A stretch of DNA of 59,219 nt, taken from Holosporales bacterium (GTDB lineage Bacteria > Pseudomonadota > Alphaproteobacteria > RUG11792). Location: assembly GCA_031282805.1 (NCBI GenBank), contig JAITDA010000015.1, positions 1-59,219 on the forward strand, given 5' to 3'. A model generated the notes under the pieces. It saw nothing but the letters and a program-made list of their open reading frames with translations. It was not told where the DNA came from and did not search any database. Both the position numbers and the translations under genes were made by a program. Shown in pieces: positions 41,739 through 43,292 of this stretch; position 1 is the stretch's first letter; each line of letters opens with the position of its first letter.

Positions 41739-43292
41739 TTATCCATCGGAATCAATTGCAGTGAGTATTGAATCTGTGACATCGCATCTAATCTCATCTA
41801 AAACCCTTGAATTACAGGTATCAAGAAAATCTATCAATAAATTTATCGCTGTTGTAGTCGTTCCACTAGAGCCCCTTGTAAATAGTTCCCTAATCTCATG
41901 TTGTATCGTGCTGATATATCCATCTTCCTGTTCTCTATTACGCGGTTTATACATATGTCTCGGAATAGCGAATTTAAATTCTATATTGATGATTTTTTTA
42001 TGGTTGTTGAGGTGCTTTACTGTATAACCAAAACTTGGAACAAAGACAGAACCATCGAACGTATTTGTAACAATATCTACGAGAATAATATCTCGTTGTA
42101 TCTGCGTTCTTGACGATAAGCTATCTCTAAGATCACTCAGTACCCCACCTTCCGAACCATCCGGTTTTTTTGTAATGAATTGTAATTGTGATATTGCTCC
42201 AAGCGCGTTGTTGACCTTACTAATTTGTTCTCCTCCAGTCATCTCAGGTGATAAGGCAAGTATTTCCACTGCCTTACCGAAAACTTTCCCGATATTGAAT
42301 CTTTTCAAGCGTGCTTTAGTATCCTGATCACGTGTTTGTATTGCATTCATAACAATCTCTAGTATGGAATCGTTGTCTTTTAAAGCTATTGCTTCAAATC
42401 CTGTTTTTAGGTCATATTTTGTATCTGTACCGAGGATACGCAACAGCCCATCATCTGCATGTTTGGCGAAATCCAACATATCATATTTCAATTCATCGTA
42501 ATCTTGTCCATCGTCGTCCACTCCATCTTGTGGATTTGCGTAGTACGCAGATACGACTGCCTCCGTCGTATCACAGACACTCCAACAACAACTCAAGAAA
42601 GAACGAAGGACCCTGTGGATAGTGCGTTTCGTTTGTATTTGTGCTAGAATCCTCGTTGACTCATCCATTGATCTTCCAAGAGCTGCTACGGCTGCAGGGA
42701 TCGTACCAGTACCGGCTCCCACGAATACATCCACAACGGCATATAATCCTAAGTTACTGCCCGGTATTTCGTTGTTAGCCAGCGCTTGGAGTCTTCGCTC
42801 GATCTCACTGAGAAATGTCATAATTGCTAGAGCCTGAAGTTTACCGTTTGCGTCAAGTAAGATGAAGATATCAACAATGTCAGGGTTATCACTTTCTCGA
42901 ATCTCCGATTTCAGATCATAAAATACTTGGTGAAGCTGTTCTAATTTTCTCGGTATTCCGGTCCAAACACGATCTGTTTGGCTTCTGTCAGCGGTACGTA
43001 CTACATGACGATGTGATATTGTTAGTCCATATATAGCGATTCTGTCTTGTGCTTTTGTGATGTTTGACAATATGAGATCAGCTGTATCTAGTTGACGATT
43101 ACAAGTTGAATTGCGAAGTTCCGAGTCTGTATCTTGGATAGCGCTTTCCTGCTCAACAGTATCGCTATCTGTGACAAAAGGAGAAACGTCATCCGTTGAT
43201 GATGAGCGACTGATTGTGGTATATCCAGATGTTGTGAATAATATTATGACAACCAGTACCATCAAATTTTTTTGGTAGCTGAACATAAACAT
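41739..43292 (-). CDS. Secreted hypothetical protein; by-eye patatin-like (PNPLA) fold with substituted catalytic motifs
   Basis: 517 aa. N-terminus MFMFSYQKNLMVLVVIILFTTSG. FILLDANGKLQALAIMTFLSEIE resembles LS.DGGG.RG.....L..LE. VDVFVGAGTGTIPAAVAALG resembles FD...GTSTG.I.A..L. FDGS at aa 412-415 resembles the DG(G/A) Asp motif. Confidence 0.7.
   Translation of the reverse strand: MFMFSYQKNLMVLVVIILFTTSGYTTISRSSSTDDVSPFVTDSDTVEQESAIQDTDSELRNSTCNRQLDTADLILSNITKAQDRIAIYGLTISHRHVVRTADRSQTDRVWTGIPRKLEQLHQVFYDLKSEIRESDNPDIVDIFILLDANGKLQALAIMTFLSEIERRLQALANNEIPGSNLGLYAVVDVFVGAGTGTIPAAVAALGRSMDESTRILAQIQTKRTIHRVLRSFLSCCWSVCDTTEAVVSAYYANPQDGVDDDGQDYDELKYDMLDFAKHADDGLLRILGTDTKYDLKTGFEAIALKDNDSILEIVMNAIQTRDQDTKARLKRFNIGKVFGKAVEILALSPEMTGGEQISKVNNALGAISQLQFITKKPDGSEGGVLSDLRDSLSSRTQIQRDIILVDIVTNTFDGSVFVPSFGYTVKHLNNHKKIINIEFKFAIPRHMYKPRNREQEDGYISTIQHEIRELFTRGSSGTTTTAINLLIDFLDTCNSRVLDEIRCDVTDSILTAIDSDG

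Follow-up and report, generated by a model that had tools for sequence, protein, structure and literature searches.

A predicted exported patatin-fold derivative with a substituted nucleophile serine in a Holosporales bacterium

The 517-residue protein and its relatives

We analysed contig JAITDA010000015.1 (assembly GCA_031282805.1), a stretch of 59,219 bp that we refer to as the window. It stems from a Holosporales bacterium; this bacterial order is known above all for intracellular symbionts of protists. Between gltX on one side and a CitMHS_2 transporter gene on the other, the minus strand carries a complete gene for a protein of 517 amino acids (aa). Major effectors of virulence and defence (ExoU, VipD, Pat1/2, CapV) belong to the patatin-like phospholipases, and the first-pass annotation, made from the letters alone, had described this protein as a secreted patatin-like protein in which the catalytic Ser and the oxyanion Gly loop are replaced. 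On recomputation its coordinates for the open reading frame (ORF) and for all motifs (aa 143-200, DANGK, GAGTG and FDGS) turned out to be exact. They are listed in Table 1 together with further features of the gene.

Table 1. Features of the patatin-like gene in the window
Feature	Position (nt)	Strand	Basis or remark
Complete gene, 517 aa plus stop	41739..43292	minus	ORF list; divergent patatin-fold proteins, an unnamed family associated with Holosporales
Predicted Sec-type signal peptide, aa 1 to ~23, MFMFSYQKNLMVLVVIILFTTSG	43224..43292	minus	Hydrophobicity and family N-termini
Variable, probably disordered Ser/Thr/Asp/Glu-rich linker, aa ~24-110	42963..43223	minus	Low predicted local distance difference test (pLDDT) values, low identity
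Stretch first aligned by eye to patatins, aa 143-200	42693-42866	minus	Coordinates recomputed, exact
Patatin-homologous N-terminal core half, aa 143-307	42372..42866	minus	hhalign against CapV profile, AlphaFold model, Foldseek
DANGK, remnant of the GGGx(K/R)G oxyanion loop, aa 147-151	42840..42854	minus	hhalign
GAGTG, nucleophile elbow, aa 192-196; Gly194 at the catalytic Ser position, Thr195 at Ser+1	42705..42719	minus	HMMER and hhalign
Cys cluster SCCWSVC, aa 234-240	42573..42593	minus	Family alignment block 205-256
Asp271, in the stretch directly before the third patatin block	42480..42482	minus	30/31 in the family
C-terminal core half, aa 308-517	41742..42371	minus	Well predicted; not alignable to patatins by sequence
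FDGS, proposed dyad Asp site, aa 412-415	42048..42059	minus	Column 413 variable

Searches with the single sequence gave no relevant match in Pfam, NCBIfam or the PDB sequences. A word-indexed protein search retrieved one true homolog (P0002), with 54% identity across 97% of the length; DANGK and GAGTG are both identical in it, and FDGS reads FNGS. A profile built from these two sequences found nothing in the PDB. Contig searches in genome and metagenome collections also yielded no relatives; in one of them the pattern had been drawn from the N-terminus, which is poorly conserved. Exhaustive searching by HMMER with the two-sequence profile detected 33 proteins with E<=1e-3 among 1.84 billion representatives, 16 of them at E<=1e-30. 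When the resulting 32-sequence alignment was given to the word-indexed search, 3 proteins only were returned. Automated annotation misses the family entirely: every relative that is named in its source is a "hypothetical protein [Holosporales bacterium]" from a metagenome-assembled genome (MAG), and none lies above the Pfam threshold. Precomputed Pfam tables list no domain for the few members that we checked in them, and no Pfam domains were found in the C-terminal extensions of the longer relatives. A regular-expression search for genuine patatins in 80 alphaproteobacterial loci found none.

The N-terminus of the protein (MFMFSYQK-NLMVLVVIILFTT-SGY) holds the strongest hydrophobic windows of the whole sequence within aa 1-28, and the strongly hydrophobic stretch at aa 9-21 after a Lys-containing start is signal-peptide-like. 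Apart from it a single weaker stretch exceeded the cut-off, located at aa 185-205 in the elbow region. Reading the printed N-termini by eye, we noted a hydrophobic stretch behind a Lys-rich start in about 18 of the 24 members that extend beyond the core by 40 residues or more on the upstream side; several of these stretches have an AxA-like end. The protein is predicted to be exported by the Sec route, with a putative cleavage site; of the label "secreted", it is this predicted Sec-type N-terminus that stands. Downstream follows the linker, in which identity to P0002 is 20-40% as compared to 50-90% in the core. In an AlphaFold2 model pLDDT falls below 50 at aa 17-68 and 94-103. The homologous core half is built, in this order, of strand 1, the Gly-loop remnant, a helix, strand 2, the nucleophile elbow, a helix and a third conserved block. 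The C-terminal half consists in the model of long helices, three long strands (401-412, 418-427 and 433-444) and terminal helices; the last of the strands ends at Pro444, which is invariant in the family (31/31). Just past the elbow helices lies a family-wide xCCxCC-like patch, with Cys and Phe interchanging in some members. It is without counterpart in CapV, and model confidence is moderate there.

Descent from the patatin fold and state of the catalytic residues

The relationship to patatins is above chance and becomes visible only once the relatives are used. When the PDB sequences were searched in full by HMMER with the 32-sequence family profile, patatin-like phospholipases made up nine of the first ten matches. 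The matches include CapE (9iom, E 0.0022), CapV (8zr9, 9kej) and VipD as well as four entries (9wn0, 9wn1, 9kh6, 9kh7) with chains named "Patatin" or "CBASS cGAMP-activated phospholipase" (CBASS, cyclic oligonucleotide-based antiphage signalling system). The printed alignments to 9iom, 8zr9 and 9wn1 share one register, in which "vDtfvGaGsGaIpAaaaAlG" is paired with "FDLVFGTSTGAIIAALIALG". Among Pfam families PF01734 (Patatin) is the only one that recurred in member-by-member scans; it matched 7 of the 32 sequences (best E 0.0029), each time on the elbow region and with a score short of the gathering threshold. The PF01734 scan of the window protein itself gave no match at all.

Profile-profile alignment was carried out with hhalign against a profile of 30 CapV proteins, all annotated PF01734. 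The family aligned with a probability of 80.6% and an E-value of 1.3e-5 to 2e-5 over 128 columns, connecting aa 143-307 of the window protein with CapV residues 22-151. The score of 47.8 compares with a best score of 21.9 and a median of 15.5 for 30 column-shuffled family alignments, and with 14.4 for a reversed-alignment control. After the Gly/Ala-rich elbow block had been deleted from both profiles the score was still 27.6, above every shuffle, and the upstream strand-loop-helix block kept its register. Relaxed and global alignments did not extend to the DGG of CapV and had zero confidence beyond aa 307. Alignment to the single sequence of E. coli RssA (E 0.07-0.3) is too weak to count; with the 32-sequence alignment it gave the same elbow register.

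Structure prediction points in the same direction. With a two-sequence alignment AlphaFold2 produced an unusable model (pLDDT 31), whereas the 32-sequence alignment gave a pLDDT of 78 and a predicted template modelling score of 0.74, with pLDDT >90 across most of aa 110-220, 270-330 and 390-500. Strand 140-148, helix 151-175, strand 189-194 and helix 197-205 of this model reproduce the patatin arrangement of strand-Gly-loop-helix and strand-elbow-helix. A Foldseek search of the PDB returned the patatin fold throughout ranks 1-20 (AbCapV, potato patatin, CapE, ExoU) with probabilities up to 1.0; at lower ranks iPLA2-beta, cPLA2 and FabD-type acyltransferases recur among unrelated folds. Taken from alignments and model, these comparisons indicate patatin-fold ancestry for the N-terminal core half at the least, and heavy remodelling of the C-terminal half.

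The catalytic Ser of the patatin motifs GTSTG and GTSIG is aligned to G194 by HMMER as well as by hhalign, Ser68 of CapV being its partner in the latter, so that the replaced nucleophile described in the first-pass annotation is borne out in both. Across 30 members column 194 holds G in 24, S in three, R in two and L in one. Since the flanking columns 192 and 196 are always occupied by small residues (G/A/S/C), as a nucleophile elbow requires, the register is fixed on column 194. Neither GxSxG nor the wider pattern G-x-[S/T/C]-x-G was found outside the elbow anywhere in the 517 residues. With a nucleophile Ser that is substituted, by Gly in 24 of the 30 relatives, within a patatin-derived domain whose core is under purifying selection, the family agrees in these respects with serine-less patatin-like pseudoenzymes of the TgPL1 type, a functional grouping and not a clade. 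The three members with Ser at column 194 (P0012, GESAG; P0031, GISYG; P0033, GMSSG) are the deepest-branching or basal ones in a rough, unsupported neighbour-joining tree, and an ancestral Ser that was lost later would fit this placement.

The oxyanion loop is degenerate as well. It reads D-A-N-G-K-L-Q, and hhalign pairs D147-A148-N149-G150 with N-G-G-G of CapV; of the three loop glycines only the third, G150, is kept, which is invariant in the family (29/29). The conserved Arg/Lys position of the loop aligns to Q153. For the catalytic dyad the FDGS motif had been proposed to retain the Asp. We rejected D413 for this role, as the column varies across members between D, N, R, A, T, P, E, S, Q and G and is N in P0002, and D406 ("LVD") was rejected because of a variable column, too. 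No conserved Asp-Gly was found downstream, including aa 340-400 with PDGSEGG, and no Asp column after aa 307 is more than 65% conserved in the family. Upstream of this limit D188, D271, D294 and G196 are conserved in at least 90% of the members. As judged from the alignments, the family lacks Ser, Asp and the greater part of the Gly loop.

The gene nevertheless is constrained. In comparison to the P0002 gene the proportion of differing synonymous sites (pS) is saturated at about 0.8, and that of nonsynonymous sites (pN) amounts to 0.185 in the core (aa 126-450) and to 0.49 in the N-terminal linker. Because of the saturation the true ratio in the core lies below the observed pN/pS of 0.23; the core evolves under purifying selection.

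Interpretation of the remodelled active site

The closest known proteins are the PF01734 patatins CapV, CapE and plant Pat17, which show the same order of elements and provide the best profile, profile-profile and Foldseek matches. D188, six residues before the elbow apex, pairs with the invariant D62 of CapV, and the small residues that flank the apex are kept. In contrast to these enzymes, the family protein has Gly for Ser at the apex, A-N-G for GGG and no Asp of a DGG/DGA motif; it adds the signal peptide, the disordered linker and the Cys-rich patch, and its C-terminal half is unalignable to theirs. The first-pass annotation had referred to the effectors of Rickettsia, Legionella and Pseudomonas. 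What can be retained of this frame is that ExoU, VipD and Pat1/Pat2 are patatin-fold proteins exported from host-associated bacteria and that ExoU and VipD are found among the matches, where they score lower than CapV, CapE and patatin (ExoU, Foldseek probability 0.23-0.33). The organism itself is Holosporales-like, however, and these effectors are active Ser-Asp phospholipases. ExoU is delivered by type III and VipD by type IV secretion, neither of them with a Sec signal peptide.

A serine-less relative in function may be sought in Toxoplasma gondii. Its patatin-like protein TgPL1 is without the catalytic Ser and has no phospholipase A2 (PLA2) activity (PMC10513453). Phospholipid binding or assistance to other enzymes has been proposed as its role, and its location shifts to the host-parasite interface (PMC10513453; PMC7365478). 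Like the present family, TgPL1 is a serine-less patatin-like protein of an intracellular organism, a likeness of description, with the fold family as common ground. It differs in being eukaryotic and in reportedly retaining the other catalytic residues, whereas the family protein has lost the Asp, too. As to novelty, which had been claimed at first, literature searches on bacterial serine-less patatin counterparts and on patatins in Holosporales found no description of the present family and no bacterial case, but the serine-less state without PLA2 activity as such had already been described for TgPL1 (PMC10513453).

We consider an exported, non-catalytic patatin derivative that binds instead of hydrolysing, i.e. 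a pseudo-phospholipase, the best explanation, with a probability of roughly 0.6. This candidate reading of the first-pass annotation agrees with the profile search of the PDB, the sub-threshold PF01734 matches, hhalign with its controls and Foldseek. According to this model, the catalytic machinery of a patatin/PNPLA core would have been dismantled in a family of Holosporales, with the scaffold kept (strand-loop-helix, strand-elbow-helix, G150, D188 and the small residues at 192 and 196). By analogy to TgPL1, the remodelled cleft might then bind without hydrolysis, with a lipid head-group, a membrane, or a protein of the host or the envelope as its ligand. The protein probably lacks any hydrolytic activity and acts by binding, with the periplasm, the cell surface or the host as its possible final location.

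Several observations weigh against such an interpretation. The scores are individually modest and none is strong: no member reaches the Pfam gathering threshold of 27.7 bits (best member 18.3 bits, P0002 12.6 bits), the best Foldseek E-value is 1.9e-3 with none <=1e-3, TM scores normalised on the target do not exceed 0.47, and the sequence alignment to patatins covers the N-terminal core half only. Moreover, the loss of the canonical dyad is no proof that all catalysis is lost. Position 195 is Ser or Thr in 24 of the 30 members and three more carry Ser194, so a functional hydroxyl might still be needed. As it lacks the defining catalytic features and stays below the Pfam threshold, the protein is not to be filed as a patatin phospholipase; it is a divergent, catalytically degenerate derivative of the patatin fold.

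The hydroxyl, present at column 194 or 195 in 27 of 30 members, leads to the question whether the protein could still be an enzyme, a hydrolase or acyltransferase, with the nucleophile shifted to Ser/Thr195 (G-x-G-[S/T]-G) and D188, D271 or D294 as invariant acid. Members with Ser194 carry A, Y or S at 195 and those with Gly194 carry S or T at 195 in 23 of 24 cases, the sole exception being P0032 with Leu. The several Asp columns of at least 90% conservation and the strong purifying selection on the core would also suit a relocated centre. The elbow argues against it, as its small-residue pattern is centred on column 194 and not on 195, and column 193, which would be position -2 of a nucleophile at 195, holds the bulky residues E, V, Y, I and M. 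In addition, the residue at 195 is Thr, a poor nucleophile in the patatin fold, in the window protein and seven other members, and four members (P0025, P0029, P0030 and P0032) have neither hydroxyl. The oxyanion loop is degenerate, no His, Ser or Cys column is conserved, and the Ser+1 position is aliphatic or small in the genuine patatins aligned here (Ile in CapV; Thr, Ile or Val in the PDB matches). Altogether we regard a surviving enzyme as doubtful. Rather unlikely, too, is a conversion of the patatin scaffold to a new function, either with a relocated centre of Ser/Thr195 and invariant Asp or as a module that binds phosphate or lipid head-groups. In the latter version the Gly-rich N-terminus of the helix and the G150/K151 loop may form the binding site and the xCCxCC patch may anchor the protein in a membrane, for instance through S-acylation by the host once the protein has been delivered into a protist. 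If true, this conversion would constitute a previously unrecognised class of bacterial host-membrane-targeting effector.

The patatin likeness itself could be fortuitous, and the elbow a Rossmann-type nucleotide-binding strand-loop-helix (G-x-G-x-x-A/G) or part of an unrelated alpha/beta fold. By eye VFVGAGTGTIPAAVAALG does resemble the GxGxxG/A dinucleotide-binding fingerprint, one member has a weak HI0933-like Rossmann match (E 0.052), and all patatin scores are individually sub-threshold. Yet the family profile drew patatins almost exclusively from a PDB that contains very many Rossmann proteins, and the first 20 Foldseek ranks are patatin folds throughout. Furthermore the 128-column alignment includes a strand-Gly-loop-helix 45 residues upstream of the elbow, which has no place in a Rossmann beta1-alphaA unit and stays in register when the elbow is deleted, and three relatives have a true GxSxG in the elbow columns. 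A fortuitous likeness is thus very improbable. The option of a decaying effector, which the first-pass annotation had left beside that of a non-catalytic binder, fared worst. Both catalytic residues are lost, the gene is bordered by long non-coding stretches (1.4 kb and 0.9 kb), the genome is of host-associated type and there is no evident Shine-Dalgarno sequence, all of which could be expected of a once-active patatin effector turning into a pseudogene. However, the ORF is intact over 517 codons with a core pN far below pS, about 24 intact, diverged relatives from different MAGs keep the Ser-less motif, and invariant positions such as G150, D271 and P444 attest to continuing constraint. Because the core is constrained and about 33 intact, diverged representatives of the family exist, the gene is not decaying; this reading is largely refuted already and we hold it to be extremely unlikely.

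If the preferred reading of a non-catalytic binder is correct, TgPL1 would have a bacterial counterpart in a conserved exported family that keeps the scaffold without Ser, Asp and the greater part of the oxyanion loop. The protein would be a tractable candidate for the Holosporales, whose host-interaction proteins are largely unknown, and G194, T195, G150, D188, D271 and the Cys patch make up a defined set of residues for mutagenesis.

Genomic surroundings and other features of the window

On both sides of the patatin-like gene we found no convincing ORFs over unusually long distances, neither in the 1.4 kb of 40361-41738 nor in the 0.9 kb of 43293-44234. A promoter and terminator scan of both flanks gave matches no commoner than in shuffled sequence, and upstream of the 517-residue ORF no Shine-Dalgarno sequence could be read by eye. 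The flanks might contain degraded pseudogenes or unannotated RNAs. In the contigs of three relatives the homolog also stands alone amid housekeeping genes; a comparison of the neighbours in these contigs revealed no conserved partner gene, and neither a cyclase gene nor any CBASS gene adjoins the gene in the window. The window contains alphaproteobacterial housekeeping genes (gltX, topA, ffh, ftsA, accC, uvrA, tolQ/R, lpxA-fabZ-infC), and its GltX has its best matches in MAGs of Holosporaceae and Finniella at only 53-56% identity, which indicates a Holosporales-like source to which nothing in the species collection is closely related.

The infC-fabZ-lpxA cluster (7614-9925 of the window) is syntenic with 10147-12344 of contig L084, which carries the relative P0004. 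The patatin-like gene adjoins this cluster in L084 only and not in the window, so the family gene has moved relative to its conserved neighbours. P0004 and P0002 (contig L001) both come from Joint Genome Institute sample 3300042636 and represent lineages that are only about 30% identical; they could be paralogs of one genome or belong to two co-occurring Holosporales. Next to P0002 (L001 1299-2555, minus strand) a signal-peptide protein of 418 aa is encoded that contains an internal duplication of a helical region and has a tail rich in Gly, Pro and Lys; it is without a Pfam match on record and without a counterpart beside the gene in the window.

Further ORFs of the window are worth mentioning. 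At 14474-18025 (minus strand) an ORF of 1183 aa with a signal-peptide-like N-terminus and no Pfam match contains hundreds of residues of degenerate repeats rich in Ala, Pro, Thr and Val (e.g. APTAAQTTVVAGVPAPAPTAAAVPEP), followed by a tail of acidic and basic charged residues. This region has a GC content of 0.48-0.54, as compared to 0.35-0.41 for the majority of 2-kb windows elsewhere, and a strongly negative AT skew. As far as composition tells, the ORF may encode a large, disordered protein that is exported and acts at the surface or in host interaction. Another ORF without Pfam match (834 aa, 4924-7428, minus strand) lies in a region with a strongly negative GC skew of -0.24. A gene at 78-2225 (plus strand) fuses a Cache/PDC-sensor to an adenylate/guanylate cyclase domain, which is notable in an apparently host-associated, reduced genome. 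The sole RNA gene detected in the window is a tRNA-Ser(GGA) at 58976-59066 (plus strand). Finally, an isolated phage-type large terminase gene (Terminase_6N/6C) is located amid housekeeping genes at 50758-52041 (minus strand). A homologous arrangement is found beside an integrase at 14002-15270 of L084, and the terminase gene could be the remnant of a gene-transfer agent or prophage conserved in the lineage.

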